64,000 nt of DNA, taken from the NCBI GenBank assembly GCA_041652815.1, contig JBAZGN010000005.1:99651-163650 (forward strand). Reading direction: 5' to 3'. A program made the translations under genes and the position numbers. This stretch comes from Candidatus Omnitrophota bacterium. GTDB taxonomy: Bacteria; Omnitrophota; Gorgyraeia; Duberdicusellales; 4484-171. Below are positions 2,508 to 61,477 of the stretch, piece after piece. How positions within the stretch are numbered: the first letter of the stretch is position 1; each line of letters opens with the position of its first letter. The notes beneath the pieces were generated by a model, which saw nothing but the letters and a program-made list of their open reading frames with translations, ran no database searches and was not told where the DNA came from.

Positions 2508-3086
2508 ATGAAAGTTGCAACTCTTAGTCAAAGAAATTACCTTGCCCTGCGTATTTGTGCTATATTTTCTTTTAGCATTTTAATGGTGATTTCTGCTTAT
2601 GTGCGCATACCACTTTTTTTTACGCCTGTCCCGTTTACTTTGCAAACCTTTGTCTTCTATCTTAGTATTGTTTTTTTAAAAAGGCAGGCAGTGTTTTCGC
2701 AGGCAATTTATTTATTTTTAGGTTTAATCGGCCTCCCTGTTTTTACAAATGCCGGAAGCGGCTTACTTTATTTTCTTGGGCCCACCGGGGGCTATCTCGT
2801 TGGTTTTGTGGTAGCGTCATTGATTTTTCCTTTCTTTTCCCCGAAGCTTGATAGCTTTTTTAAAAACTTTTGCTATTTCTCTTCTGTTGCTTTTTGCGTG
2901 TATTTCTTTGGAATAGCCTGGCTTATGTTTATACATAAATTTTCCTTAACTAACGCTCTTATTGCGGGAGCAATGCCGTTTGCCTTAGGTGAAGTATTTA
3001 AAATTGGTTCGGCTTCTTTAATCCGCTTAAGATTGAAATCAGGTTTATTCTCCGGTAAGAACGGCTATCGCAATTACCAGATATAG
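2508..3086 (+). CDS. bioY: BioY-family biotin transporter substrate-specific component.
   Basis: PFTLQTF and GPTGGYLVGF motifs typical of BioY; multi-TM; strong RBS. Confidence 0.7.
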   Translation: MKVATLSQRNYLALRICAIFSFSILMVISAYVRIPLFFTPVPFTLQTFVFYLSIVFLKRQAVFSQAIYLFLGLIGLPVFTNAGSGLLYFLGPTGGYLVGFVVASLIFPFFSPKLDSFFKNFCYFSSVAFCVYFFGIAWLMFIHKFSLTNALIAGAMPFALGEVFKIGSASLIRLRLKSGLFSGKNGYRNYQI

Positions 3087-3175
3087 TCTTTAGTTTCGCA
3101 AATGTTAAAGCAAATATTTATATTGACCTGGCAGCCGTTATGTTATGGTAATTATAGACAGTAGGTTTAATTTCC

Positions 3176-3817
3176 ATGATTGAAAAGAAGTTCTTTATAT
3201 TTGATTTAGATGGGACTTTAGCTGATGCTTACAGGGCTATAGAGAAAAGCCTTAATTTTACGCTGAATAAGCTTGGGTTTTCCAAGGTAAGCTACAAGGA
3301 AGCGAAACAAAAAGTAGGTAGGGGGGATAAAATATTTATGGAAACGTTTTTTCCCCCTGAAGCAATAAAACAAGCTCTTGGTATATATCGCCGGCATCAT
3401 AAGGGTGCGCTTAGAATGTTCTCTAAGCTAAGGCCGCATGCAAGATGGATGCTTAAGCAATTAAAGCGTAAAGGAAAATTGACTGCTATTGCTTCCAACC
3501 GGCCGAGCTATTTTACTAATTTGATTTTAACAACACTTGGTATAAAAAAATATTTTAACATGGTTTTGTGCGCGGATGAGGTTAGGAGCAATAAACCGAA
3601 CCCAAAAATATTAAATGTTTTGATAAAAAAATTAAACGTTGCCAGGGGGGAAACTGTATTTATTGGAGATATGGACATAGATTTAGAAACAGCAAAACGT
3701 GCCAACATTGATGTTGTCTTTATAAAGGGGGGATCAAGCCGCCCGGCGGTTGCAGGTAAATATAAAAATGCGAAAGTAATTTCTTCGTTGAAAGAAATAC
3801 TGAAGTTATACGAATAG
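3176..3817 (+). CDS. HAD-superfamily hydrolase (phosphatase-like).
   Basis: FIFDLDGTLADA motif I, S/T motif II, K..GDMDID motif III/IV. Confidence 0.7.
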   Translation: MIEKKFFIFDLDGTLADAYRAIEKSLNFTLNKLGFSKVSYKEAKQKVGRGDKIFMETFFPPEAIKQALGIYRRHHKGALRMFSKLRPHARWMLKQLKRKGKLTAIASNRPSYFTNLILTTLGIKKYFNMVLCADEVRSNKPNPKILNVLIKKLNVARGETVFIGDMDIDLETAKRANIDVVFIKGGSSRPAVAGKYKNAKVISSLKEILKLYE

Positions 3818-3855
3818 CTTGTTTACTGTATATACCCCTTGCGTCCAGATACCAG

Positions 3856-3897
3856 GGGCTACGGGGTTAAGTCTCCGCCTACGGCGGAGAATTAAGG
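3856..3897. repeat. Family H module (GGGGTTAA-N3-TCCGCCTACGGCGGA-G-AATTAAGGAG) that carries the RBS of the downstream gene.
   Basis: Near-identical module at 47786-47830, also directly before a start codon. Confidence 0.5.
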
Positions 3898-3904
3898 AGT
3901 ATAA

Positions 3905-6900
3905 ATGGACAAGGACTATATGCTTCGCGATGATGGAAGTTTTATTATAAAGAATTATAACAGCAAACATCCATTTTCAAATTTTCTTCCCGGCGTAGCC
4001 GGTGCCTGGGGAGTACCGATGTGGGTTTTTTACGTAAACCGGGCACAGGGAGTTATAAGTTTCGGAGTCAAAGATAAAGATCACGCTATAACCGAATTTT
4101 TCCCGGCGAATAATGCTTATTGTTTTGCGCCGCTTGTAGGCTTTCGTACATTCCTCAAGATAAACGATAAAATTAATTATGAGCCATTTCGTGTAATTTC
4201 AGATTATGAACGTAACGAGGAGATGGTTATAAAAAGCTCATCTTTCAGCATACGCAAAAATAATCCGGAACTTGGCCTTAATTTGCGTATTAAATATTTT
4301 ACGCTTCCAAATAGCGCTGCGGGGGCACTGGTACGTGTTTTATCCGTTAAAAATATTTCCGACAAGGAAATAAAGCTTGAGGTTTTAGACGGGTTACCCA
4401 AAATAATACCCTTTGGATTAAACAACGTGTTGCTCAAAGATTTAGCAAGGACTATGGAAGCATGGATGCGCGCTGAAGTTCATAATAACCTGGCATTCTT
4501 CCGTATGATTGTTGACCCCAAAGATTCAAGCCAGACAAAATATATTGATGGCGCTAATTTCGAATACGCTTTTTATGAAGAAAACGGTAAAAAGGTATCA
4601 CCTTATATAATAGTAGACCCTACTGCAATTTTTGCGCAGGATACTTCCTATTCTGTTCCAGTTAATTTTTATGCAAGCAGTTTCAAAACTCCACTTACAC
4701 AAATTATGGCAGGGAAAACCCCGTGCGCTTTTAACCATTTTACATGGAGTATTCTACCGGGAGAGGTTAAAATATTTTACAGTATGTTTGGTTCTTCTTT
4801 TAAATCGCAGCTTATCAAAGATTTTGTTTCGGGAATAGATGCTAACTTTTTAAAAGAAAAAGAAAAAGAAAATAAAAGTATTATTGAAAATATTAAAGAT
4901 AATTGTTTTTCTGTATGTTCTTCAGACAGGCTGAAAGAGTATGTGAAATGTACTTATCTGGATAATGTTTTGCGCGGCGGTTACCCTTATAAATTTACGG
5001 ATAAAAACAGTTACTATATTTTTTCCCGCAAGCATGGTGACCTGGAAAGAGATTATAATAAGTTTAAGTTACTACCTTCCTATTTTAGTGAGGGCGAGGC
5101 AAATTATCGTGATATAAACCAGAACCGCAGGGTAGATTTATTCTTCAATCCGTCCCTTGGAAAATCAAATATAGTGTATTTCCTAAACCTCATAAAGATT
5201 GACGGATATAATCCGCTGGTAGTAAAAGGCGAAAGGCTGTTTTTTAACCAGGCAGCAGCGCGTAATCTATTAAAACAATTCGGTATAGCTGATAAAAAAA
5301 TAATTTCTCTGATGGTTTCAGGCTTTCATCTTGGTGATTTCTTTAAAATCCTTAAAGAAGAAGGTATTGTTGTCAAGGCGCGAGAAAAATTAGCCGCGGA
5401 ATTAGTTACGAAAGCGCAAAGAGAGCCTCAGGCAACTCATGGCGAAGGGTACTGGATAGATCATTGGCGCTATAACCTTGATTTAATCGAAAACTTCCTT
5501 TATTTTTATCCCGATAAATTAGATGACCTGTTTTTAACCAAGGAATATTATTTTTGGGATGATGAGTGGCGCGTTAAGGAACGCAGCCATCGTTTCCATT
5601 TAAAAGATGGTAAGGTTTACCAGTGGCACTCTGTTGAAGAAGTGGGAGAGAAAAAAGATGTTATAGCTTCGCGCGCAAAATTCGCTAATTTTCTGCGTGA
5701 TAAAAAAGGAAATATTTATACTACAAGCCTTATAGAAAAACTTTTAACTCTTATTCTCAATAAAGCTGCGACTTTAGATCCTGATGGTGTAGGCGTTGAA
5801 ATGGAGGCGGATAAACCAGGCTGGTGCGATTCTCTAAATGGCCTTCCTGCTCTTTTTGGCTCTTCAATATGCGAAACTTTTGAATTAAAGCGCGCCTGCC
5901 TTTTGCTGAGTGAAGCAGCATCAGCTTTAAACAAAAAAGGTACAGCTAATTTTAATTTGGCAGAGGAAGTGTATGAATTTTTAGAAGGGCTTGAAGGGCT
6001 GACTAAGAAATACTCTAACCTGCCGGCAAAACAGCGTGATATGTTCTGGTGGGAAAAATCCAATTCCCTGAAGGAAAGTTTCCGGAAAACAACTTTTGCG
6101 CAGATTAAAGGCAAACAGATAAGCATTCCCGGCCTGCGGCTAGAAAAATTCTTAAATTCGCTGGTTAATAAATTGGATAACGGTATCGAAAAAGCTCTGG
6201 ACAGGGATACAGGAATTTATTCTACGTATTTTAAGTATAGCGTAGAAAAATTTCATGCCAAAGGAAAAATAATTAAGCCGCTTAAGTTTAAAAAAGAGCC
6301 TCTCGCGCATTTCTTGGAAGGTTCGGTTCATGCTCTACGCACGCAAAAAGAAAGTTCTATTTATAGTGCGTTAAAGAAAACAGTTATTTTCGATAAAGTA
6401 TTACGGATGTACCGTCTCAACGCGTCTTTAGAAAAAGAACCTCTTGAAATTGGAAGAAGCAGGATTTTTACACCGGGCTGGCTTGAGAATGAATCCATCT
6501 GGCTGCATATGGAATACAAATACCTTTTGGAAGTGCTTAAAAAAGGTTTGTATGAAGAATTCTACGAAGATTTTCATAATTGCGCGGTATGTTTCTTCGA
6601 CGCGCAAAAATACGGAAGAAATATCCTGGAAAACTCTTCTTTTATTGTAAGCAGCGCTAATTGCGATAAAAATTTATGGAACAAAGGTTTTGTCGCGCGC
6701 TTAAGCGGTGCAACTGTTGAGCTCCTGAATATGTGGATTGTAATGTGCCTGGGTAAGTCGCCATTTAATATTAACGGTAATGGCGAACTAACTCTTAAAT
6801 TTTCCCCTATTCTCAAGTCAGAGCTTTTTACCAAGCAGGAGCAGAAAATCGAATTTAGAGGCAAAAGCGAGATTATTGAAAAAGATTGTTTCGCTTTCAA

Positions 6901-9447: not shown

Positions 9448-9653
9448 TGAGCACATCATTTTTTCAAGCCCTGACCGCCCTGACTGCCCGCAAGGGCAGG
9501 CGTGGCAGGCGTGGCGCAGGAAAAATGATAGTGCGAATTAACCCCGAAGCGCTTCGGTTAAATTTCGCAGAAATTTAACCGATATACAGGCGCAAGGGGT
9601 ATGTATAGTAAAACATGGTATAGAATTTCAAATGAAACCTTCTAAATAAAAAA

Positions 9654-10182: not shown

Positions 10183-10218
10183 TTTGAGTTGTTTGGTAGG
10201 TTTACTTGATATTTTATC

Positions 10219-10307
10219 GGAGAGGTGCCGGAGCGGTTTAACGGGTACGCCTGGAGAGCGTAAGTCTGTCGAAAGACGGACCGAGAGTTCAAATCTCTCC
10301 CTCTCCG
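10219..10307 (+). tRNA. tRNA-Ser (anticodon GGA), long variable arm.
   Basis: Acceptor GGAGAGG/CCTCTCC, anticodon loop CTGGAGA, long variable arm, T-loop TTCAAAT. Confidence 0.8.
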
Positions 10308-10580
10308 TTGTCCTACCTATCGCGAGAAAACATCCAACCAGAAATGGGGATGTTTTCTCGCAACATATAGGAAAAGGACAACGGATTCCGGCGAAGCACC
10401 GCCTGAGCCGGAATATCGTTAATAATATTTCGTAAGCGTAAACCATCAAACCGAAGGGGATGGTTTTCCACAACATCTAGGAAAAGGACAACGGATTCCG
10501 GCGAGCCGACCGAGGACGTAATGTCCGAGGGAGTGCCAAGGCCTCCGGATGAGGCTCCGTCCGAGCCAGAATATAACCCT
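10308..10580 (+). repeat. tRNA-Ser-linked structured element, copy 1, with a degenerate internal tandem duplication.
   Basis: 57 nt identical to 14626-14682, including a 15-bp perfect hairpin CGCGAGAAAACATCC..GGATGTTTTCTCGCA. AGGACAACGG pairs back onto the tRNA 3' trailer CCGTTGTCCT. A second conserved ~100 nt domain (GGATTCCGGCGAG...GCCGGAAT) follows. Confidence 0.6.
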
Positions 10581-10882
10581 ATTGTTAACGCTCAAGCGAA
10601 CCCTGTGATTAGCCTTTCTATGGTTCGTTGGCATCTACGACCACCCACCAGTTGTTGTTCAGTATTTGTAAGATTATCGAAAATTTCCTGTACTTTTATA
10701 ACCAGCACAATACCCTTCTCCGGGCACTATGCTTGTAAAACCATTGTAAATATGATAAAATTTCCAATAAATGAATTTAACTTTTCTTAACGTCTGAGAA
10801 TATAGTAAAAGTTCTACAGGGGCGGATTGGCTGGCGGATAATTCATAAACAGCATTAATCAAGATTTACAAGGAGGATTTAG

Positions 10883-14455: not shown

Positions 14456-14537
14456 AATATCCGCATGTGGCGGTTTTACCCACCACCAAAAAAGATATTT
14501 AAGAGGACACGCCTCGGGCGGAAAAACCGTTTGTTTT

Positions 14538-14625
14538 GGAGAGGTGGCTGAGCGGTTGAAAGCGCCGGTCTTGAAAACCGGTGTGGGCCTTGTGTCCACC
14601 GTGAGTTCAAATCTCACCCTCTCCG
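14538..14625 (+). tRNA. tRNA-Ser (anticodon TGA), long variable arm.
   Basis: Acceptor GGAGAGG/CCTCTCC, anticodon loop CTTGAAA, T-loop TTCAAAT. Confidence 0.8.
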
Positions 14626-14832
14626 TTGTCCTACCTATCGCGAGAAAACATCCAACCAGAAATGGGGATGTTTTCTCGCAACCTGAGCTCATTAATAAAA
14701 ATATTCAGCGAGGCTTCGCGAAGCGAAGAGGAGGAAAAGGACAACGGATTCCGGCGAGGTAACCGAGGACGTAATGTCCGAGGGAGTGCCAAGGCCTCCG
14801 GACGAGGCTCCGCCCAAGCCGGAATGTAACCC
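14626..14832 (+). repeat. tRNA-Ser-linked structured element, copy 2.
   Basis: Same 57-nt hairpin module and ~100-nt second domain as 10308-10580. Confidence 0.6.
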
Positions 14833-20134: not shown

Positions 20135-20220
20135 CACAGATTATCACAGACGGCAGACGCAGATGACCACAGATAAAATTATCTGCGATTATCTGTTTTC
20201 CAATCTGCGATCATCTGTGT
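20135..20220. repeat. Family C palindromic element, copy 2.
   Basis: CACAGATTATCACAGA ... ATCTGCGATCATCTGTG. Located between rseP and ispG. Confidence 0.7.
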
Positions 20221-20229
20221 AATAAAAAA

Positions 20230-21273: not shown

Positions 21274-22514
21274 AAACTATTAAAAAAGAGTTGCGTAAAG
21301 AATTAAGTTTTTTAGGCGGTGCCGATGCTAAGCTTGAGGAAGAAATTATCCGCGACCGCATAACAAAAATATTTGACTTCTGGGAAAAAGAGAAAAACCG
21401 TACAATTGATAACGCATCAAAAGAAAAAGTCATAAAAGAGCTTTGCGATGAATTTCTAGGATGGGGCCCGCTTCAAAAATTGATGGACGACCCAAATGTA
21501 ACCGAAATAATGATAAACGGGCCTTTTAAAGTTTATATAGAAAAAAACGGAAAAAAAGTAATAACTGAGGTAAAGTTTGATGACGAAACTCACTTGCGCC
21601 ATGCAGTTGAAAAGATGCTTATTCCTGCCGGTAGGCGCGTTGACGAATCTTACCCGTATGTAGATTTTTCTCTAACTGACGGCTCGCGCGTTAATGTTAT
21701 TATCCCGCCGCTTTCAGTCGGGGGTGCCACTGTCACTATCAGAAAATTTTTACGCAGCATAAGTTTGGTAAATGATTTAGTTAATTTAGGCACCATCGAC
21801 GAGAGAATGGCTAAATTTTTGGTTGCCTGCATTAAGGCAAAGGTAAATATCCTTTTTTCGGGGGCTACCGGAAGCGGTAAAACCACGACTCTTGAAGTAC
21901 TTTCTTCGTATATAAATCCGATGGAAAGAATCATAGTTATTGAAGACACTCTTGAGCTTACGCTCAGGCAGGAACACGTTGTGCGCTTGCTGACGCGCCC
22001 GCCTAACATAGAAGGTAAAGGCACGATTGAAATAAGGGACCTGTTCATTAATACCTTGCGGATGAGGCCTACCAGGATTATTTTAGGCGAAATAAGGGGA
22101 GCGGAAGCAATGGATTATCTTCAGGCCCTAAATAGCGGGCACCGAGGCTGCCTTGCGGTAATACATGCCTCAAGCCCGTTTGATGCATTAACCAGGCTTG
22201 AGACAACCGCGCTTTATGCCGGATTATATATGCCGGTATGGGCGATAAGAAAACAAATTGCTTCGGGTGTGGATTTAATTATACAGCACGACCAACTTAC
22301 TGATGGCACAAGAAAAATAACTTATATGACGGAAGTCCTAGATCGTTTAAACGGAGAAGAAATAATTCTTAATGATATTTTCCGTTACGAAATAGACAAA
22401 GTTGATCTGGAAGGAAAAGTAATGGGTTCATTTAAAGCAAAGAATACACCGTTATTTTTCCCATTATTTAAGAAGAAAGGAGTTGAATTAAGCGAAGATA
22501 TATTTAAAGAATAG
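21264..22514 (+). CDS. CpaF/TadA-type type II/IV secretion-system ATPase. It is an orphan: no other pilus genes are nearby.
   Basis: Walker A GATGSGKTT, Walker B IVIEDTLEL, ILGEIRG and His-box SGHRGCLAVIHASSP. Confidence 0.8.
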   Translation: MDIKTIKKELRKELSFLGGADAKLEEEIIRDRITKIFDFWEKEKNRTIDNASKEKVIKELCDEFLGWGPLQKLMDDPNVTEIMINGPFKVYIEKNGKKVITEVKFDDETHLRHAVEKMLIPAGRRVDESYPYVDFSLTDGSRVNVIIPPLSVGGATVTIRKFLRSISLVNDLVNLGTIDERMAKFLVACIKAKVNILFSGATGSGKTTTLEVLSSYINPMERIIVIEDTLELTLRQEHVVRLLTRPPNIEGKGTIEIRDLFINTLRMRPTRIILGEIRGAEAMDYLQALNSGHRGCLAVIHASSPFDALTRLETTALYAGLYMPVWAIRKQIASGVDLIIQHDQLTDGTRKITYMTEVLDRLNGEEIILNDIFRYEIDKVDLEGKVMGSFKAKNTPLFFPLFKKKGVELSEDIFKE

Positions 22515-22595
22515 CTATCAGCTTTCAGCCCCCCCTAAGGGGCGCCCTTGAAGGGCGGCTGGCGGCTGACGACAGAGAGCAGAAAACTTATTAAA

Positions 22596-27436: not shown

Positions 27437-27496
27437 AGGTTAAGGCTAAGGTTGAGGTTAAGGATTAATTTAGCTTCAACCTAAACTTTTATAACT

Positions 27497-28477: not shown

Positions 28478-28490
28478 AACTAGAAGCGGA

Positions 28491-28572
28491 TATCCGCGGA
28501 TCTAAACGCGGATAAACGCCAGCGAGTTACCGTGCGTAAATCCGCGTAAATATCCGCGGCAATCCGCTTCTA
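28491..28572. repeat. Family B palindromic element (CCGCGGAT units, TAGAAGCGGAT...ATCCGCTTCTA termini), copy 1.
   Basis: Near-perfect inverted termini with internal CGCGGAT repeats. Shared with 35144-35234 and 41299-41390. Confidence 0.75.
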
Positions 28573-28585
28573 CTAACTATATACC

Positions 28586-29561: not shown

Positions 29562-30599
29562 ATGAATCAAGAGAATGAACGAGTGGTCGATTATTTACAG
29601 GAGAACGAAGAGGAAAAGGTTATAAACCTCTCTCTTCGCCCGCATAGTATTTCTGATTTTATCGGGCAGAAAAATGTTATCAGTGCTTTAGAAATTGCGA
29701 TTGCCGCGGCAAAGAAAAGAGAAGAACCCCTTGAGCACGTCCTTCTTTCCGGCCCCCCCGGCCTTGGTAAAACCAGCCTTGCCTATTGTATTGCTCATGA
29801 AATGGGAAGCAAACTTACTTCAACAAGCGGCCCGGCTATTGAGCGCGCAGGCGACCTGGTCGGTATTTTAACTAACCTTGAAAAAGGAGATATTCTCTTC
29901 ATAGATGAAATCCACCGCCTTTCAAAGATTGTAGAAGAGTTTCTTTATCCTGCCATGGAAAATTTCCAGATAGATTTTGTAATTGATAAAGGCCCTTACG
30001 CAAAAAGCGTAAAATTTAACTTGAAGCCTTTTACACTTATAGGCGCAACAACAAGGAAAGGGTTGTTAAGTGCACCGCTGCGGGGCAGGTTCGGCCTTTT
30101 TTATGATTTTGATTTTTATAAAGCTTCTGATTTGTCTTTAGTTGTTGAAAGAAGCGCAAAACTTCTTGATGTAAAAATTGACAAGGAAAGCGCTCTGGAA
30201 ATTGCGTCTCGCTCCCGTGGTTCGCCGAGGCTTAGTAACCGGCTTTTAAAAAGAGTAAGAGACTATACGCAGGTAAAAGATAAAGGCGCAATCCACCTTG
30301 AAATAACCAGAGAAGCCCTTACGCATTCAAGAATTGATGAAAATGGATTTGATGATTTAGACAGAAAATACCTTCGTGCGTTAATTGAGCTCTACCAGGG
30401 TGGCCCTGTCGGCATTGAGACAATTGCAGCTTCTCTCGGCGAAGATAAGGGTACTCTTGAGGATGTGGTTGAACCTTACCTGTTAAATAAAGGCTTTATA
30501 ATCCGCTCTCCGCGTGGCAGAATCGTTACAGATGCGGCTTACAAGAATTTAAACATTTCTTCCCCTGAGAAATCTATGGAAGGAAGAGATGGCAAATAA
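29562..30599 (+). CDS. ruvB: Holliday junction branch-migration helicase RuvB.
   Basis: AAA+ Walker A GPPGLGKTSLA, Walker B FIDEIHRL, sensor motifs. Confidence 0.9.
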   Translation: MNQENERVVDYLQENEEEKVINLSLRPHSISDFIGQKNVISALEIAIAAAKKREEPLEHVLLSGPPGLGKTSLAYCIAHEMGSKLTSTSGPAIERAGDLVGILTNLEKGDILFIDEIHRLSKIVEEFLYPAMENFQIDFVIDKGPYAKSVKFNLKPFTLIGATTRKGLLSAPLRGRFGLFYDFDFYKASDLSLVVERSAKLLDVKIDKESALEIASRSRGSPRLSNRLLKRVRDYTQVKDKGAIHLEITREALTHSRIDENGFDDLDRKYLRALIELYQGGPVGIETIAASLGEDKGTLEDVVEPYLLNKGFIIRSPRGRIVTDAAYKNLNISSPEKSMEGRDGK

Positions 30600-31185
30600 T
30601 AATCAGACTGATTTCCCACCATATAAAATTTCCAAATCATTCAAATTTTTTATCACTTTATTTTCAATCATAGCTTTGCTATTTCTTGGCTATATTTTAT
30701 TTAAGACAGGTGAAAATTTGCAAGACATTATAAGTATTATTACAGGTGCAATTGGCGGGATTGTTTTAATCGTTTGGCTTGCGCTAGTGAGTATAAAGAA
30801 AATTCGTAATAAAGAAGGTCTGTCAGATAGAGAGTGTTTATATATTGATGATTTGGGGAATTCTAAAATTGTAAATATTATCAAAAAATATATATTTTCA
30901 AATATGGAAATAGGCGATGTTTTGAAATTTATAATTGTGATGGGTTATCTGTTTAAATGGATGTTTTTTGGTGTATTTACTTTTGGAACGATAATAGTAT
31001 TTTGTAGAAATGATACTTTTTTTAGCAAAATCTTGATGCTATCTTTAGGCATAATTTGGTGTCCTTGGCTTGAAAATCTTATTTTGAAAAAGCTTAATTA
31101 CAAGATTGTTTTTATTATTAAGATATTAGCCACTTTTGCTATATTTTGTGCAGGTATTATTATGATAGATAAGAAAGGAGGTTAA
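30589..31185 (+). CDS. Hypothetical polytopic membrane protein in an AT-rich segment.
   Basis: Multiple TM helices; the start overlaps the ruvB stop; local GC is clearly lower than the flanks. Confidence 0.4.
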   Translation: MANNNQTDFPPYKISKSFKFFITLFSIIALLFLGYILFKTGENLQDIISIITGAIGGIVLIVWLALVSIKKIRNKEGLSDRECLYIDDLGNSKIVNIIKKYIFSNMEIGDVLKFIIVMGYLFKWMFFGVFTFGTIIVFCRNDTFFSKILMLSLGIIWCPWLENLILKKLNYKIVFIIKILATFAIFCAGIIMIDKKGG

Positions 31186-31544: not shown

Positions 31545-32887
<1,343 letters not shown>

Positions 32888-33652: not shown

Positions 33653-33730
33653 TCACAGACAAGAAATCACAGATGATCGCAGATAAAATCATCTGTGATC
33701 ATCCGCTTACAAATCTGTGCTAATCTGTGT
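33644..33730. repeat. Family C palindromic element, copy 3. It overlaps the trmD stop and precedes the rplS RBS.
   Basis: CACAGATGATCACAGA ... ATCTGTGATCATC...ATCTGTG. The TGA stop of trmD is inside the first unit. Confidence 0.7.
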
Positions 33731-33747
33731 ACCCAAAGGAGGTTAAT

Positions 33748-34800: not shown

Positions 34801-35166
34801 ATGCAAAAAGGTAAGTTTTACGAAGATAAAGCGGCAAATTATCTGAAACTTAAAGGCTACAGTATCCTAAAAAGAAATTTTCGTTCTCCTTTCGGAGAGA
34901 TTGATATTATCGCAACGGATGAGGGCTATATCTGTTTCATTGAAGTAAAAGCAAGAAATTATAATTATCTTGTATCCGGTAAAGAGGCAATAGATTTTAG
35001 AAAAATAGAAAAGATTAAAAAAACCGCTCTTTTTTACGCATCCGGTAATTTAGACAGGCTTTTTAGGTTCGATGTCCTGGAGATAATCCAGGGCAAGGAT
35101 TTTCGTGAATATAACCTCATAAAAGGAGCGTTTGATTGTAGCGTAGAAGCGGATAGCCGCGGATAG
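34801..35166 (+). CDS. yraN: YraN-family (UPF0102) endonuclease-like protein.
   Basis: GE.DIIA...FIEVKAR restriction-endonuclease-like core; conserved rnhB-yraN adjacency. The last ~7 codons are supplied by the family B element. Confidence 0.7.
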   Translation: MQKGKFYEDKAANYLKLKGYSILKRNFRSPFGEIDIIATDEGYICFIEVKARNYNYLVSGKEAIDFRKIEKIKKTALFYASGNLDRLFRFDVLEIIQGKDFREYNLIKGAFDCSVEADSRG

Positions 35167-35234
35167 CAACGCGGATTTACGCAAGCGAATTGTGGGCGGT
35201 TATCCGCGTCAATATCCGCGGTAATCCGCTTCTA
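35144..35234. repeat. Family B palindromic element, copy 2.
   Basis: TAGAAGCGGATAGCCGCGGAT ... ATATCCGCGGTAATCCGCTTCTA. Confidence 0.75.
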
Positions 35235-35249
35235 TAATAAAATGTAAAC

Positions 35250-35765
35250 ATGGAAAAATACAGGGATAATTTTAAAACTTATTTAAAAGATTTAGGCGCG
35301 AAAAAACCTTCCCCCGGAGGAGGCAGCGCTGCTGCGCTGTCAGCCTGTATCGGGATTTCCCTGATTGAAAAAGCCATTAATTACTCCGCTAAAGATAGAA
35401 AATTCCTTAAGGAAATAAGACTTCTTAATAGCCTTAGAAACAAAGCTTTAATCTGTGTCGATAGTGATGGGGAAATTTTTGAAAAAGTTATGCAATCGAA
35501 AGGCAAGAAGCGGCTTTTCTTTTTAAGTAAAAGCAACGCGTTGGTTGTGGATTTGGGTAATATTTGTGTCAGAGTGTCGTGCCTTGCCAAAAAAGTTGAA
35601 TCCGGCATAAAAAAGAGTATAATTAGTGATTTTTATACGGGATTAAATTTTATCCGGGTTTCCCTTAAGGCTTGTATTTATAATCTAAAAGATAACAGCA
35701 GAATTTTAGGCAAACCGGAAAGAAGCATTAATGTTTTTAAGAGGCATTTAAAGGCAGGTGTTTGA
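35250..35765 (+). CDS. Cyclodeaminase / methenyl-THF cyclohydrolase-like protein (FtcD-C / FchA family).
   Basis: PSPGGGSAAALS glycine-rich motif of the formiminotransferase-cyclodeaminase C-domain; adjacent to folD. Confidence 0.55.
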   Translation: MEKYRDNFKTYLKDLGAKKPSPGGGSAAALSACIGISLIEKAINYSAKDRKFLKEIRLLNSLRNKALICVDSDGEIFEKVMQSKGKKRLFFLSKSNALVVDLGNICVRVSCLAKKVESGIKKSIISDFYTGLNFIRVSLKACIYNLKDNSRILGKPERSINVFKRHLKAGV

Positions 35766-36739
35766 TGGCGATGATTCTGGAAGCAAAAGAAATATATGAT
35801 GTGCTTAAGGAGAGGCTAAGAGCGCGCCTCAAGAGCCTGCCTACCTTGACACTTGCTTCTTTAACTATCGGAAAAAATTATTCTTCGCAAGTTTATCGCG
35901 CCTCGCAGAAAAAGCTCGCGGAAAGCCTGGGGGTTAAATATCTATCTTTGGAATTACCGCAGAATATCAGAGTAAAAGACGCACTCGCCAAAATTCAAAG
36001 CTTCAACAAAAATAAAAAAATAACCGGAATTGTCGCCAACAAGCCTTTCCCTTCAAATTTTACCGAAGAAATAATATTTAGCACAATTGACTATAAAAAA
36101 GATATCGAGGGGATGAATCCCTATAACCTTGGGCTGCTTTTTGTCGGAGAGCCTTTGTTTATTTCTCCGACAGTATTAAGTATTCTGGAATTCATAAAAA
36201 TGTCAGGCATTGACCTTTACGGGAAACAGGTAACCATAGTCGGTTTTTCCACACTTATAGGAAAACCTTTAGCGCTTATATTGGGCAGGAAGTTAGCAAC
36301 TGTCACTATCACCCATATAGGCACTTACGAATCGGGGAAGCTGCCGTTTTATGTAAAAAATTCTGATATCGTTGTATCTGCGGTAGGCAAGCCTCACATT
36401 ATAAAGGGTGAGTGGATAAAAAAAGGCGCAGTTATTATAGATGTGGGTATCGGCAAGCTCAATAATAAAGTTGTCGGCGATATAGAATTTGAGGCAGCAA
36501 AGAAAAAAGCCGCTTTTATTACACCTGTCCCAGGCGGCGTGGGGAAACTGACTTCGCTTTTTCTTTTCAAAAACCTGATAGACGCATATTCCCTTTACCA
36601 GAATACCCTGCCCGCCTCCGGCGGGCGAGGTTGCACCCGTGGACAATCAAGGAGCGGGACGTCGCCCCACGGGGCGTATTGCAAGTCCCCACGGGCTGCC
36701 GAAGGCGTACCCATGGGGCTCCAGAAAAAATATGCTTAA
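35762..36739 (+). CDS. folD: Bifunctional methylene-THF dehydrogenase/cyclohydrolase, with a ~35-aa GC-rich C-terminal extension that reads through a repeat element.
   Basis: FolD blocks (YxxxKxK...GIVxNKPFPS, PGGVGKLT). The ORF is ~35 aa longer than typical FolD, and the tail is encoded by the GC-rich segment 36601-36730. Confidence 0.85.
   Translation: MMAMILEAKEIYDVLKERLRARLKSLPTLTLASLTIGKNYSSQVYRASQKKLAESLGVKYLSLELPQNIRVKDALAKIQSFNKNKKITGIVANKPFPSNFTEEIIFSTIDYKKDIEGMNPYNLGLLFVGEPLFISPTVLSILEFIKMSGIDLYGKQVTIVGFSTLIGKPLALILGRKLATVTITHIGTYESGKLPFYVKNSDIVVSAVGKPHIIKGEWIKKGAVIIDVGIGKLNNKVVGDIEFEAAKKKAAFITPVPGGVGKLTSLFLFKNLIDAYSLYQNTLPASGGRGCTRGQSRSGTSPHGAYCKSPRAAEGVPMGLQKKYA
36601..36730. repeat. 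GC-rich hairpin-rich element (repeated CCCCACGGG; GCCCGCC-TCC-GGCGGGC hairpin) at the folD 3' end.
   Basis: Local GC is far above the window average. Similar GC-rich hairpin patches occur at 37380-37450, 9470-9530, 22525-22560 and 61300-61400. Confidence 0.45.
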
Positions 36740-37844
36740 TAATTTAAAATTGAGCGCAATTACTGTTTTAGGGGCAGGAGAAGCCGGCCTTGAATTTATA
36801 AAAAAAACCCGCGAAAAAAATTCCGGCATAAAACTAACCCTTATCGACAAAAATGCGCATTATTTTGACAAATCCAAATTTATCCGTTCTATGGACTTAA
36901 AGGCTTACGTCGATTTGAAGGATTTTGCGCAAAAGCATAACGTTATGTTCATACAGGATACGGTTGAGCGGATAAATCCAAAACAGAAGAAAATTTATTT
37001 TAAACAGAATGAACCAATAGACTTTGAGGTGTTGGTTGTAGCCAGCGGCGTAAAATCCAAAAGCATACCTTTAAAGGGTGAGCGCAGGGAAGGTTTATTC
37101 TATCTTTCAGACATAAATCCTTTTGAGTTTAAAAGTTTGCTTAAGATATCGTCAGAATTGATAATCTATGTAACTACGTTTTTGGGGCTTGAGCTTTGTG
37201 TCTTACTTAAGTCCGCAGGTAAAGAGGTAAGGGTTTTAGGCGATAATTGGAATTTCCTGGCGAGCTACAAGGAGAGAGTTGTTAATTTCTTGAGTGAAAA
37301 ACAAATAAATGTCCATTTAAACGTTACAGTAGATGAAGTAATCGGAGAAGGCCAGGTTAAGGCAACAAAAATAAGCCCGCTTAACCCGCCTTCGCTTGCC
37401 TCGTCGCTTCCGGCGACGGGCGAAGCTTCGGCGAGGTTTCCGCTTGCTCAAAATGAAAAACAGGAACCTATAGGCATAAGTTCAAAGAGCTTCAAAGTGT
37501 TTTCTTCCCAGATGGTTTTTCTGGATACCGGGTTTTCGCCGAACCTTGACTTTTTCGAAGCGCCTATTAATATAACAAATATATTTACGGAGTTTGAAAA
37601 CATCTTTGTTGTGGGCGATTGCGGCAGAATGGATATAGGAAACGATTATTTTTACGCATATAATTCTGATGAAGCGCGCAGCCAGGCGCAGCTTCTAAGC
37701 CAGTTTATACTTGAGGCGAAAGAAGCAAGTTTTGTGCGTAAAATCTTAAGCGAGGAAGATAAACAGAAGATGATAGATGATTTTATAGCTGCAAAGGAAA
37801 ATATAAATTCGGAAAATCAAAATTTAAATAAAACCGTAAATTAA
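36732..37844 (+). CDS. FAD/NAD(P)-dependent pyridine-nucleotide-disulfide oxidoreductase family protein with an in-frame 24-aa GC-rich insertion.
   Basis: Rossmann VLGAGEAG near the N-terminus and a second dinucleotide fold (GDCG). Residues LNPPSLASSLPATGEASARFPLAQ are encoded by a GC-rich hairpin segment. Confidence 0.55.
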   Translation: MLNNLKLSAITVLGAGEAGLEFIKKTREKNSGIKLTLIDKNAHYFDKSKFIRSMDLKAYVDLKDFAQKHNVMFIQDTVERINPKQKKIYFKQNEPIDFEVLVVASGVKSKSIPLKGERREGLFYLSDINPFEFKSLLKISSELIIYVTTFLGLELCVLLKSAGKEVRVLGDNWNFLASYKERVVNFLSEKQINVHLNVTVDEVIGEGQVKATKISPLNPPSLASSLPATGEASARFPLAQNEKQEPIGISSKSFKVFSSQMVFLDTGFSPNLDFFEAPINITNIFTEFENIFVVGDCGRMDIGNDYFYAYNSDEARSQAQLLSQFILEAKEASFVRKILSEEDKQKMIDDFIAAKENINSENQNLNKTVN

Positions 37845-39093: not shown

Positions 39094-39723
39094 ATGATGA
39101 AAAAAAAGTTATTTTTATTTGTCTCGTTAATACTATTTACCAATGCCTATTTTTCTTACGCCGACGAGATCGAACAAAAATTCAAAACAATTGGTGAAGC
39201 AATTAAAGAAGAATTTTATAAAACAGTTAAGCCGATAGGCAGCCAATATGAAATATCCGATGAAGAGAGAGAAGATAATTATCTTCACCAAATAAAGCTG
39301 TTTAAGGAATGGCAAAAAGAACTAAAAAAATTAGTCGAAACTAAGCCTAATAGTATTTGGGCTGACGATGCACAGTATTTAATGGCTACATTAAACATCA
39401 AAGATAATAATTCGGATATTAAACAAAGATCATCGGAGCTAGAATATTTGATTGAAAAATATCCTTCTATCCATATAGAACAATGGACAAAGGATAATAT
39501 TGTTTTGGTGCGAATTCCTAAAAAAATCTCGGATGATGTATGGGTAAGGTGCGAATTAATTTTCGAGTATCAACAAATTGGCGATAATAAAAAAGCTGAA
39601 GCGCTTTACAGGAAATCACGTGATGAATTTCCGGACTACGCAGACCTTTTAGCAAGATTTTATGATTCTAAAGATATATCGAAAGCGGAAGTAGAAAAGC
39701 TTAGAAGAAAATATTTCGAATAA
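39094..39723 (+). CDS. Secreted hypothetical protein.
   Basis: Signal peptide LFLFVSLILFTNAYFSYA; no recognisable domain. Confidence 0.4.
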   Translation: MMKKKLFLFVSLILFTNAYFSYADEIEQKFKTIGEAIKEEFYKTVKPIGSQYEISDEEREDNYLHQIKLFKEWQKELKKLVETKPNSIWADDAQYLMATLNIKDNNSDIKQRSSELEYLIEKYPSIHIEQWTKDNIVLVRIPKKISDDVWVRCELIFEYQQIGDNKKAEALYRKSRDEFPDYADLLARFYDSKDISKAEVEKLRRKYFE

Positions 39724-41298: not shown

Positions 41299-41390
41299 TA
41301 GAAGCGGATACACGCGGATTTATACGCGGATAAACGCCAGCGAGTTCGCTTGCGTGAATCCGCGTCAATATCCGCGGATATCCGCTTCTA
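41299..41390. repeat. Family B palindromic element, copy 3.
   Basis: TAGAAGCGGATACACGCGGAT ... ATCCGCGGATATCCGCTTCTA, between guaA and dnaE. Confidence 0.75.
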
Positions 41391-41407
41391 TTATTAAGCA
41401 TATAAAT

Positions 41408-44400: not shown

Positions 44401-44815
44401 TTTAAAAATTGAAGATGAGACTTCAACTGTCGAGGTTTTTGTCTTTCCCAGGCTTTTTGCCGAAGCTGCTGCCGATATCAAGGAAAAAAGCATAATCGTT
44501 ATAAAGGGTAAACTTGAATCCAAAGAAAGAGCGCCCAAGATTTTAGCCGCTAAGATTATCCCGATTGAGCGTATTTTTGACAATATCAAAGGCCTTAATA
44601 TCGCCATAAACCAGGAGAAATTTCCTCTGGCGAATCTAAAAACCATTTTTTTAAATAATAGAGGAACAACCCCGGTTGTTTTTGCCTTTCGAAACGCAAA
44701 GCTTAATGGTGTTAAAATTAAAACCGCCAATCAATTCTGCCTAAAACTTACTGAAAACGCCCTAAAGGAAATTGGTGCGTTAATAGGGGATGAGAATCTT
44801 TCGTTGAGCCTCTAA
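41408..44815 (+). CDS. dnaE: DNA polymerase III alpha subunit.
   Basis: PHP N-terminus FIHLHVHTQYSLLDGA, palm and fingers blocks, OB fold. The annotated upstream ORF part is read-through of the repeat. Confidence 0.9.
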   Translation: MAHSDFIHLHVHTQYSLLDGACQLNRLIEKAVKFKLPGLAITDHGNLFGAVKFYEECMDAGIKPIIGCEVYVAPDSRFKKEYKNEDAGNYHLILLAKDEQGYKNLIKLVSLAHLEGFYYKPRIDKEILSQHNKGLIGLSACLKGEIASAIIADDIKGAYKKCDEYLQILGKGNFYLEIMENGLKEQAKANKHLLKISKELDVPVVATNDIHYLEKNESFAHEVLLCIQTQTTLNDPNRFKFNSDTFYFRSPDEMKAIFKEAPEAIKNTLEVMQKCNLVMDFSKIHLPRFPIPENETENGYLQKIVTENLPKRYSEVTDEVNKRLEYELGVINSTGFSSYFLIIWDLIKYAKENNIPVGPGRGSAAGSIVSFLLGITDVDPLKYDLLFERFLNPARISMPDIDMDFCYEKRSRVLEYVGKKYGEANVAQIITFGTMLARAVVRDVGRAMGHSYADVDKIAKMIPVIVGHQVTLKEALSQSPELSQVYQSDAGIKRLIDVAIQLEGLSRHASTHAAGVVISDKPLMERIPLIRGAEEEIVTGFDMESLEKTGLLKMDFLGLKTLTVIDSTVKIIKRTKGVEVDITNLPLDDKKTFSLLSQADTIGVFQLESRGMREILRKLIPTRFEDLIAVLALYRPGPLGSGMVDDFIERKQGKKPVSYGHPKLESILKETYGIILYQEQTMQIASKLAGFSLSQADLLRKAIGKKIPEIMEEQRNLFVEGSKKNGVSQRIATQIFDLIDYFSGYGFNKSHSTAYALISYRTAYLKANYPVEFMAALLTSERTNTDKIVEYVNEVNHMGMKVLPPDINTSFANFTVTDEKNIRFGLLAIKNVGTTALDNIIEIRKQKKFDDFFEFCDRVDGRVVNKKVLESLIKSGAMDSFKLKRAQMTAMLDKILAKTTKKEDPSQFLLFTAPKKQQEIPDVEEWPLLQILSFEKSLLGIYVTSHPLYSYANTVKHLHRQEIISLYEQESREEVVICGIVEKARIITTKRSGERMAILKIEDETSTVEVFVFPRLFAEAAADIKEKSIIVIKGKLESKERAPKILAAKIIPIERIFDNIKGLNIAINQEKFPLANLKTIFLNNRGTTPVVFAFRNAKLNGVKIKTANQFCLKLTENALKEIGALIGDENLSLSL

Positions 44816-44818
44816 TTA

Positions 44819-44873
44819 AGGTTACGAAAGTTACGAGGGTTACGCAGGTTACGAAGGTTACGGAAGTTACATT
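44819..44873. repeat. Family A array: six tandem 9-mers of GTTACGNNG (GGTTACGAA type).
   Basis: Strict 9-bp periodicity, directly after the dnaE stop. Confidence 0.75.
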
Positions 44874-44948
44874 TAAAAGACCTGATTTATTGTAATCTAT
44901 GTGATTTTCGTAGCTTTCGCGATCTTAACATATAATTTGTATAAACTC

Positions 44949-46290: not shown

Positions 46291-46432
46291 GGTTACGAAG
46301 GTTACGAAGGCCAACAGGCCACCCTGTTGGGTAGGTTACGAATGTTACAATAAATCAAGTGATTTAAATGTAACCTTCGTAACTTCCGTAACCTGCCTGC
46401 CGGCAGGCAGGCATCCGTAACCTTCGTAACCT
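46291..46432. repeat. Family A palindromic element (GGTTACGAA arrays in inverted orientation with inner GC hairpins).
   Basis: TAGGTTACGAAGGTTACGAAGG ... TGTAACCTTCGTAACTTCCGTAACC ... CCGTAACCTTCGTAACC. Inner hairpins are CCAACAGG-CCAC-CCTGTTGG and CCTGCCTGCC-GGCAGGCAGG. Confidence 0.75.
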
Positions 46433-47687: not shown

Positions 47688-47785
47688 TAAATTCCAAGGA
47701 CGCAATACTTAATTATAGAAATACCCCTCGCGCCTGTATATCGTGTAAATTTTCACGCTCACTTCGCTCGCAGAAAATTTACACG

Positions 47786-47830
47786 AAGCGCTTCGGGGTT
47801 AATTTTCCGCCTGCGGCGGAAAATTAAGGA
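47786..47830. repeat. Family H module (GGGGTTAA-TTT-TCCGCCTGCGGCGGA-A-AATTAAGGAGG) that carries the RBS.
   Basis: Near-identical to 3856-3897; preceded by the CGAAGCGCTTCG palindrome also seen at 9551. Confidence 0.5.
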
Positions 47831-47836
47831 GGTATT

Positions 47837-49393: not shown

Positions 49394-49456
49394 GGTAACC
49401 TTCGTAACTTTCGTAACCTACGTAACCTTCGTAACCAGAGCCAACAGGCTCTTCTA
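49394..49456. repeat. Family A array (GGTAACCTTCGTAAC units, inverted orientation) plus a GC hairpin.
   Basis: Five tandem 9-mers GTAACNTNC, then AGAGCCAACAGGCTCT. Confidence 0.7.
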
Positions 49457-51077: not shown

Positions 51078-51096
51078 AAAAATATTTTGATATTCA

Positions 51097-51202
51097 GGTT
51101 ACGAAAGTTACGAAGGTTACGCAGGTTACGAATGTTACAATAAATCAAGTGTTTCAAGTGTAACTTTCGTAACATTCGTAACTTCCCGTAACATCCGTAA
51201 CC
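51097..51202. repeat. Family A long palindrome: five GGTTACGAA 9-mers, a ~25-nt centre, then five inverted 9-mers.
   Basis: GGTTACGAAAGTTACGAAGGTTACGCAGGTTACGAATGTTACA ... TGTAACTTTCGTAACATTCGTAACTTCCCGTAACATCCGTAACC. Confidence 0.8.
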
Positions 51203-56050: not shown

Positions 56051-56059
56051 TTGATTAAA

Positions 56060-56210
56060 TAACCAAGCTCCAAGATACAATAACCAAACAATGACCAATA
56101 ATCAAATTCCAATAACCAAACGAAAAAGAATAAAACTGTTTGGTCATTGGTTATTGGATATTGGAATTTGTTTGTATCTTGTACCTTGGTTATTGGTTAT
56201 TTTATAAAGA
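56060..56210. repeat. Family F imperfect palindrome (CCAATAACCAAAC / GTTTGGTCATTGGTTATTGG units).
   Basis: ATAACCAAG...CCAATAACCAAAC - centre - GTTTGGTCATTGGTTATTGG...CCTTGGTTATTGGTTAT. Confidence 0.6.
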
Positions 56211-61266: not shown

Positions 61267-61477
61267 TTCATTTAGCTTTTTTAATGCTAAACCTCGATTG
61301 ACCCATTCGACGGCGCCCAAGTTTCGGATTTTGAGCCGGGCTAAAAGGCGCTGCTCAGGGTCAACCCTGAGCAAACGGAGCGTGCCGAAGGGTTGACTTA
61401 TTCTTTTTGATTGATAAAATATAACGTAAGCACTAGAAGCGGAAAACCGTTTCTGTAAATTTAAAGGAGGTGTCAAG

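Follow-up and report, generated by a model that had tools for sequence, protein, structure and literature searches.

Two in-frame inserts in a folD–oxidoreductase gene pair

The 64-kb stretch of Candidatus Omnitrophota DNA analyzed here (contig JBAZGN010000005.1; hereafter the window) carries on its forward strand two overlapping genes, folD and a gene for an oxidoreductase, each of which contains a GC-rich insertion that leaves the reading frame open. Comparison with syntenic loci revealed the boundaries of both insertions, a preserved native end of folD downstream of the first, and a family of dispersed repeats to which the first belongs. The window as a whole has a GC content of 39% (60-nucleotide (nt) windows: mean 0.39, standard deviation 0.08), and the peaks at 36583-36727 (up to 0.73) and 37371-37452 (up to 0.70) are among its strongest; the GC-rich segments, together with the repeat and the hairpin quoted in the initial annotation, are present as described there. 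The features of the gene pair are as follows.

35765..36739, forward strand: folD, encoding methylene-tetrahydrofolate (THF) dehydrogenase/cyclohydrolase, 324 amino acids (aa) including the insert at residues 276-320; native KKYA and stop kept
36586..36589, forward strand: ATAT, the pre-existing 5' flank or target-site tetranucleotide, with no duplicate on the other side of the element
36590..36724, forward strand: insert 1, a copy of a dispersed Omnitrophota repeat; 135 nt, 45 codons, 67% GC, in frame, encoding SLYQNTLPASGGRGCTRGQSRSGTSPHGAYCKSPRAAEGVPMGLQ
36732..37844, forward strand: FAD/NAD(P)-dependent oxidoreductase (Pyr_redox_2), 370 aa; start overlaps the folD stop by 8 nt
37383..37493, forward strand: insert 2; 111 nt, 37 codons, residues 218-254, NPPSLASSLPATGEASARFPLAQNEKQEPIGISSKSF
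37387..37433, forward strand: GC-rich imperfect palindrome in insert 2, with 21-nt arms that are 71% complementary

Insert 1 lies four codons before the native folD stop, between ...NLIDAY and the terminal KKYA, with its breakpoint at 36589/36725. It is absent from three syntenic loci that DNA alignment and blastn match to the window at 77-87% nucleotide identity: L001 (a JGI metagenome), L007 (an ENA assembly) and L008 (the GenBank metagenome-assembled genome JALOBR010000021.1, Candidatus Omnitrophota). FolD relatives with 86-90% aa identity are 279 aa long, end in ...NLIDAYKKYA and the stop, and lack the insert, and among the best 120 of 7164 FolD matches the insert residues occur in the window's own protein (P0001) only. 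Between the folD stop (36737-36739) and the next gene, whose ATG is at 36732, there is an overlap of 8 nt, and the same ATGCTTAA overlap is found in the relatives; KKYA, the stop and the overlap are therefore ancestral. The initial annotation had described a segment of ~130 bp following the end of folD, giving the protein a C-terminal extension of ~35 residues and an overlap with the next gene. The segment is indeed GC-rich and open in frame, but it is an internal insertion of 135 nt and 45 codons ahead of the native stop, and the overlap, although present, is one that the relatives share. We rejected a read-through extension of FolD, given that the native C-terminus, stop and overlap are kept and the added DNA lies within the gene.

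Solved FolD structures align with the query only as far as residues 271-281, mostly 274-278; insert 1 starts at residue 276, past the last helix of the FolD fold. Since its 135 nt are a multiple of three and contain no stop in the folD frame, its most likely fate is translation into 45 appended residues. The frame of the oxidoreductase gene runs open through insert 1 as well (36639-37844), and a hypothetical GTG start at 36639 would add 31 N-terminal residues to that enzyme.

Relative to L001, L007 and L008, insert 2 has its breakpoint at 37384/37494, with a junction ambiguity of 2 nt (AA), and it is open in the oxidoreductase frame. An in-frame insert had been recognized here from the outset; it is real, but spans 37 codons (37383-37493) and not 24. 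None of 57 oxidoreductase homologues carries it, nor do the three syntenic loci. Its first 65 nt form a GC-rich imperfect palindrome (68% GC) and its remaining 46 nt an AT-rich tail (35% GC); its RNA folding z-score of -2.0 against dinucleotide shuffles is unremarkable for such a composition. In an AlphaFold model built from 58 sequences, with a predicted local distance difference test score (pLDDT) of 87.8 (a 14-sequence model, at pLDDT 44, was unusable), the predicted fold of the oxidoreductase resembles CoA-disulfide reductase and NADH oxidase. Insert 2 is modelled as coil, with pLDDT below 50 over residues 223-245, between strands at 211-216 and 255-258, and it is thus predicted to occupy a disordered surface loop between two beta-strands.

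Another loop of the same enzyme holds an older, hairpin-like insert of 45 nt (15 codons) in some relatives (L001 11580-11624; L008 ~10746-10797; corresponding window site ~37589). It is present in the homologues P0124, P0126-P0129 and P0131 and absent from the window and from P0122, P0123 and P0125. Its length stays constant at 15 residues despite a sequence that has diverged among the relatives, which shows that such inserts persist as coding sequence.

Could the inserts be assembly chimeras, made by fusing reads of a GC-rich organism into an AT-rich contig? The DNA does come from a metagenome, and GC content jumps sharply at the boundaries. However, two further assemblies from two samples share the junctions: an ENA contig of ERZ27247358 (L006) is identical to the window over 2596 nt, and one of ERZ27247363 (L009) is 99.8% identical over 2972 nt, both with the two inserts present. 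The six differences in L009 cluster at 37043-37133, are all synonymous and independent, and lie outside the inserts; the same sample also contains the insert-free relative L007. Both inserts keep the reading frame, and the element is found in other AT-rich Omnitrophota contigs from unrelated projects. The inserts are not an assembly artefact, because two further assemblies carry both, and we regard a chimeric origin as having a negligible chance of being correct. The proposal of the initial annotation that small GC-rich insertions have been tolerated within open reading frames (ORFs) is thereby borne out: they are lineage-specific, missing at exact breakpoints from all close orthologues of both genes, reproduced in two other assemblies, and positioned after the last FolD helix and in a low-confidence loop of the oxidoreductase model.

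Several other sources of the DNA were considered and rejected. Neither a tandem duplication nor another local origin of insert 1 is supported: Tandem Repeats Finder reported nothing, no second copy exists within the window, a comparison with the syntenic loci showed nothing similar, and the only internal repetition is a 9-mer, CCCCACGGG, occurring at 36665 and 36687, at a spacing of 22 nt. As regards a protein-coding origin from a GC-rich organism, peptide queries (six frames for insert 1, four of six for the GC-rich part of insert 2) matched only the two host proteins among 5.8 billion, and scans against viral contigs, bearing on a viral origin, found nothing. No known RNA family, ribozyme or riboswitch, including the THF riboswitch, was matched in Rfam: Rfam 15 at the gathering threshold returned tRNAs only, and searches at E<=10 for the window copy and E<=5 for copies in the contigs L010-L012 returned nothing relevant. 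A CRISPR repeat was dismissed for want of an array, only a single 25-mer being present, and a terminator role because the inserts contain no terminator-like site on the sense strand.

A dispersed repeat family with conserved termini

A scan of 241 million metagenome records for an exact 25-mer of insert 1 (GTCGCCCCACGGGGCGTATTGCAAG) yielded matches on three JGI contigs, one of them matched twice. Copies in L010, L011 and L012 align with insert 1 from the first to the last base at 74-95% identity, and a profile and a covariance model built from the copies found with the 25-mer located more in L008, L011 and L013.

L008 4915-5034: diverged copy, an end-to-end homologue of insert 1
L008 9054-9145: decayed copy at the FTCD_C/folD junction
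L011 2890-2997 and L013 14698-14796: divergent copies, sharing termini and hairpin modules only

In all, eight independent copies were found on Omnitrophota contigs, which have a GC content of 38-42% and encode proteins named by NCBI as Candidatus Omnitrophota. The family is mostly intergenic and dispersed through these genomes; it was previously uncurated and seems undescribed so far. Copies can lie close together, with one pair in 14 kb of L008, another in 6.6 kb of L011 and a tandem pair in L012. Members are about 100-155 nt long (the copies compared span 99-153 nt), GC-rich and without an ORF, with fixed ends TCCCTTTRCC...GGGCTCCAG. The signature consists, in order, of the 5' end TCCCTTTRCCRRAATWCC, a variable GC-rich hairpin, a 35-nt core in most copies, and a second hairpin with GGGCTCCAG; the termini can be searched for as TCCCWTTNCYNNAAWWHC ... 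GSGCTCCAG. In the window, these elements are arranged as follows.

36590..36607, forward strand: conserved 5' terminus TCCCTTTACCAGAATACC, kept in all copies including the divergent L011b and L013c
36610..36626, forward strand: left subterminal hairpin GCCCGCC-TCC-GGCGGGC, of a length that varies between copies
36651..36685, forward strand: conserved core GGAGCGGGACGTCGCCCCACGGGGCGTATTGCAAG, 35 nt, containing the scan 25-mer
36687..36718, forward strand: right subterminal hairpin CCCCACGGG-CTGCCGAAGGCGTA-CCCATGGGG, with the inner loop GAA (TTC in L010 and L011)
36715..36724, forward strand: conserved 3' terminus GGGGCTCCAG

The left hairpin is a perfect 7-bp hairpin in insert 1; L012a lacks it, L010 and L013c have a longer form, and that of L011a is different. 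The core is nearly invariant in five copies (two transitions in L010; the 25-mer identical in 5/5), degraded in L008a, and absent from L011b and L013c. Local hairpins are present across the family, with folding z-scores from +0.3 to -3.0; for insert 1 the value is about -1.0 to -1.3 against dinucleotide shuffles, not beyond chance for its composition. Orthologous copies in two near-identical strains (L015 7126-7278 and L016 ~3070-3330) differ by hairpin modules gained or lost, the L016 copy having an extra hairpin within the 5' conserved segment and a deletion of ~30 nt in its 3' half, and these differences show that internal modules turn over quickly.

The near invariance of the core in five copies from several genomes would also be expected if the element were a duplicated functional structured RNA, either a small RNA gene or a cis-regulatory leader, whose folD copy regulates the oxidoreductase. 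Its position could be read in the same way, as the window element ends 7 nt before the oxidoreductase ATG and the L011 element begins 8 nt past a near-consensus promoter, with a start codon 14 nt beyond its end. However, that promoter is tadB's own and occurs at the empty site of L013 and L014 too, for which reason a small RNA gene with its own promoter in L011 was rejected. The neighbors of the copies are unrelated (folD, DUF2905, FTCD_C, tadB, a glycosyltransferase and a small membrane protein), divergent copies keep the termini without the core, as a transposition substrate would, and there is neither covariation nor an Rfam match. We consider a structured RNA function unlikely.

Mobility of the family is shown by three loci for which both a filled and an empty site are available.

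folD: filled in the window; empty in L001, L007 and L008; junction GCATAT/AAAAAA
DUF2905: filled in L008; empty in the window (31545-31772) and L001; junction CTTCAA/AATCCC
tadB 5' untranslated region: filled in L011; empty in L013 and L014; junction AAGTAT/TAAATA

In each pair the element has the same ends, TCCC...(C/G)AG, which are unambiguous and accompanied by no duplicated bases, and comparison of the sites shows that no DNA was gained or lost around the insertion. Terminal inverted repeats are lacking, the 5' end TCCCTTTACC being unrelated to the reverse complement of the 3' end, CTGGAGCCCC, in every copy. The 5' flanks of the eight copies are TTAT (four), TTAA (two), ATAT (one) and TCAA (one). 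TAT was already present at two of the three empty sites, among them folD, where it is seen in L007 and L008; one of the three verified targets is TCAA, not TTAW. The foot of the left hairpin lies ~16-21 nt from the 5' end and that of the right hairpin ~4-8 nt from the 3' end. Copies are co-oriented with the neighboring genes and lie on the G-rich strand, with positive GC skew at 6/6 loci.

Three copies lie within genes, namely folD in the window and, in L008, DUF2905 and the 3' end of FTCD_C; the other five are intergenic. The DUF2905 copy comprises 120 nt (40 codons) and is inserted in frame between two hydrophobic segments. At L008 9054-9145 the decayed copy has taken the place of the FTCD_C C-terminus, and the protein has 197 aa there as compared with 171 aa in the window; in L008 this copy separates FTCD_C from folD, two genes that overlap in the window, and the FTCD_C C-terminus is 26 residues longer. 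Copies inside genes are open in the frame in which they are read; those between genes have stops in the forward frames or lengths not divisible by three (110 nt in L012). Both inserts of the window are tolerated at permissive positions, the terminus of FolD and a loop of the flavoprotein.

An alternative in which the proteins would not contain the extra residues at all is that the element is an intervening sequence, a tiny self-splicing or host-spliced intron removed from the RNA. Precise conserved ends, conserved hairpin modules and an orientation that is always sense to the surrounding genes are features to be expected of an intron, and the final G of all copies and the T preceding the element in 5/8 flanks recall group I boundaries. 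On the other side, known group I and group II introns are far longer than 100-155 nt, no Rfam ribozyme or intron was matched even at E<=10, and most copies are intergenic. Splicing, moreover, would not need in-gene copies to be multiples of three, stop-free and confined to termini and loops, and the altered end of the FTCD_C reading frame in L008 is unexpected of a sequence that is spliced out. In our view, an intron is highly improbable.

The second insert and other repeats of the window

Is insert 2 related to the family? It shares with insert 1 the hairpin foot CCCGCC...GGCGAGGTT, which in insert 2 takes the form AACCCGCC...GGCGAGGTT, and a stretch of 15 nt with L011b's middle hairpin, at a score reached by 0/500 shuffles. 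In global alignments with family members, insert 2 scored only 1.0-2.3 standard deviations above shuffles; the covariance model of the family gave 1 bit with filters off, nhmmer found nothing, and insert 2 has no TCCC...CCAG ends. A decayed family member was rejected as its source, since the hints are weak and there is neither a model match nor a family terminus, and so was the notion, prompted by an odd MAFFT placement, that the AT-rich tail is a diverged duplicate of upstream codons, the identity being near chance. Possibly, insert 2 represents a hairpin module from a related family.

A different account holds that the inserts are non-mobile filler captured once in break repair, or an ancestral segment lost in all relatives. 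Insert 2, with no relatives or recognizable termini and only 2 nt of junction microhomology, fits such a capture, as does the distance of only 660 nt between the inserts. For insert 1, however, filler is excluded by the existence of the family and the three filled/empty pairs, and loss of an ancestral segment would require each relative to have deleted it precisely and on its own. Overall we judge this account very unlikely, although filler capture is possible for insert 2.

The window contains other repeats and variable segments. The patches at 9456-9536, 22509-22589 and 61333-61392, which the initial annotation had grouped with the inserts, are intergenic hairpins downstream of ORFs and share no sequence with either insert. 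Long imperfect palindromes of 9-nt periodic units (GTTACGNNG) at 44797-44919, 46326-46397, 49395-49437 and 51083-51193 flank a variable island, encoding a DUF6036 nucleotidyltransferase and a Fic protein, that differs from L007. A palindromic intergenic repeat of ~95 nt, with GCGGAT motifs ~10 nt apart, occurs in three copies that are 83-92% identical (28481-28575, 35144-35241 and 41299-41393), each just 3' of a gene and one directly upstream of the FTCD_C-folD operon. Further hairpin repeats of short periodic units are found at 2429-2492, 20158-20221 and 33668-33731, at 56051-56208, and at 27438-27481; the types are CACAGAT, AATAACCAA and a GGTTAAG hexamer hairpin, the last of which is absent in L007.

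Behind each of the genes for tRNA-Ser(GGA) and tRNA-Ser(UGA), at 10218-10579 and 14537-14832, lies the same 60-nt hairpin (98% identical) and then a GC-rich segment of ~100 nt (92% identical) with no Rfam match and no significant fold; ORF-calling programs would carry the OmpA-like gene at 14774 on into this segment. Two segments occur in the window only, as compared with L001, L007 and L008 (30560-31473 and 39015-39760), and contain ORFs without Pfam domains at 30589-31185 (198 aa) and 39094-39723 (209 aa). A motif of ~49 nt with two small GC hairpins occurs at 3851-3899 and 47783-47831 and has inverted partners at 9536-9607. It closes with AAGGAG shortly before the ORF starts at 3905 and 47837 and could be a shared leader or ribosome-binding structure.

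A model for the origin of the inserts and comparison with known systems

In conjunction, these comparisons lead us to propose the following model, which we hold to be very probable: insert 1 is the recent insertion of a small, non-coding, non-autonomous mobile element that survived in frame, and insert 2 is a separate insertion. The element would have landed 3' of TAT, four codons before the folD stop, leaving untouched the native FolD C-terminus and stop as well as the start of the next gene, which is translationally coupled, and adding after the last FolD helix an appendage of 45 residues that is most likely translated. Selection would act as a filter, such that within genes only in-frame, stop-free copies in termini or loops survive. 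The most likely route of insertion is a single-strand "peel and paste" reaction of the IS200/IS605 type, with a transposase acting in trans from elsewhere. IS608 inserts 3' of TTAC, with no gain or loss of DNA and on one strand, and its subterminal hairpins lie 19 and 10 nt from the cleavage sites (PMC3201880). We favor an IS200/IS605-like mechanism for the Omnitrophota family because it combines the absence of inverted termini and target duplications with a conserved 5' flank, subterminal hairpins and a fixed orientation. The fragment of an IS630/Tc1-like transposase in L013 and L018 was rejected as the source of mobility, as it would give TA duplications and none were seen.

Several observations weigh against this model. 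No transposase gene or longer element with the same termini occurs in the window or the fetched loci, so that the mechanism of transposition is argued here from resemblance. The strand bias is confounded with gene orientation, nearly all genes lying on the same strand. Copy number appears to be low, with one copy in the 64-kb window and the 25-mer on three contigs only, and the in-gene copies known are just three. In most copies the hairpins are not significantly more stable than those of shuffled sequence, and no compensatory base changes were seen among five sequences. Insert 2 has no relatives in the window, the 19 fetched loci, the protein database or viral contigs, and its description as a separate lineage-specific insertion, tolerated in frame as insert 1 is, draws on the analogy with insert 1. 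Finally, the view that the inserts are translated and the copies filtered by selection is supported by reading frame and position, from which it is inferred.

We also considered a more elaborate role for the internal parts of the element. By analogy with the right-end RNAs of TnpB and IscB systems, the nearly invariant core and the right hairpin of the TCCC...CCAG elements might serve as a guide-RNA scaffold directing a nuclease in trans to empty sites, a conjecture to which we assign little likelihood. Each copy, including the one in folD, would then be transcribed together with its 3' flank into a guide, and the family would represent a trans-acting RNA-guided homing system with miniature copies able to live in essential genes. 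In a related reading, hairpin modules could themselves be gained and lost by a dedicated mechanism, which would explain both insert 2 and the differences between L015 and L016.

What is gained by recognizing the family? With it, Omnitrophota, an uncultivated phylum, joins the few lineages with a repeat family that enters genes for housekeeping enzymes in frame. The filled and empty sites, being clean, make it possible to date and study how a protein segment arises from selfish DNA. For annotation, the family accounts for odd C-terminal "extensions" and loop inserts in Omnitrophota genomes, and its termini and 25-mer provide a searchable signature. If the mechanism is indeed IS200/IS605-like, the copies would mark Omnitrophota genomes with an active single-strand transposase.

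Among known systems, the Rickettsia palindromic elements (RPEs) offer the closest parallel to the behavior of the family, as they are repeats inserted in frame within genes and translated as an extra peptide (Ogata et al. 2000, as summarized in PMC10969869); selection-filtered in-frame insertion has also been described for some MITEs, miniature transposable elements with inverted repeats (PMC10969869). Both RPEs and the Omnitrophota family comprise ~100-150 bp with hairpin potential and no ORF, lie between genes as well as in frame in unrelated genes, and occupy in-gene sites compatible with the protein fold. Unlike the RPEs of Alphaproteobacteria, to which it is likened by description only, the Omnitrophota family is GC-rich in an AT-rich genome, with a conserved flank and a fixed strand, and it has three known in-gene cases as compared with dozens. 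Sequence homology between the two is unlikely, given the phylum and the base composition.

In anatomy, the family agrees with IS200/IS605-derived, palindrome-associated miniature elements, which likewise have no inverted termini and make no target duplication (PMC3201880). Their imperfect hairpins inside each end have counterparts in the Omnitrophota family, though L012a lacks the left one, and their strand specificity may have a counterpart in the orientation of the copies, which is confounded with that of the genes. The 5' flank is TTAW in the Omnitrophota family as compared with TTAC in IS608 (PMC3201880); in contrast to IS200/IS605, however, no TnpA, TnpB or full-length parent was found for the family in the window or the fetched loci. 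Classical MITEs such as Correia, ERIC, Nezha and QMITE (PMC10969869) are also small, non-autonomous and multi-copy, with occasional in-frame ORF fusions, but they have terminal inverted repeats and target-site duplications, and the Omnitrophota family has neither. Repetitive extragenic palindromes (REPs) and the bacterial interspersed mosaic elements (BIMEs) built from them, which are tied to HUH-type enzymes (RAYT transposases), similarly consist of intergenic GC-rich hairpin modules in variable number. REPs are units of 20-40 nt, strictly extragenic and usually very abundant, whereas the Omnitrophota element has long, specific, non-palindromic termini. The GC clusters of yeast mitochondria are GC-rich palindromic mobile units of 30-40 bp in an AT-rich genome and are found in frame in var1; they belong to a eukaryotic organelle and are shorter, with other target rules, but like the Omnitrophota family they can sit in frame. 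The family is thus nearest to RPEs in behavior and to IS200/IS605-derived miniature elements in anatomy; selfish DNA tolerated inside proteins is known in kind, and the Omnitrophota family seems to be a new instance of it.

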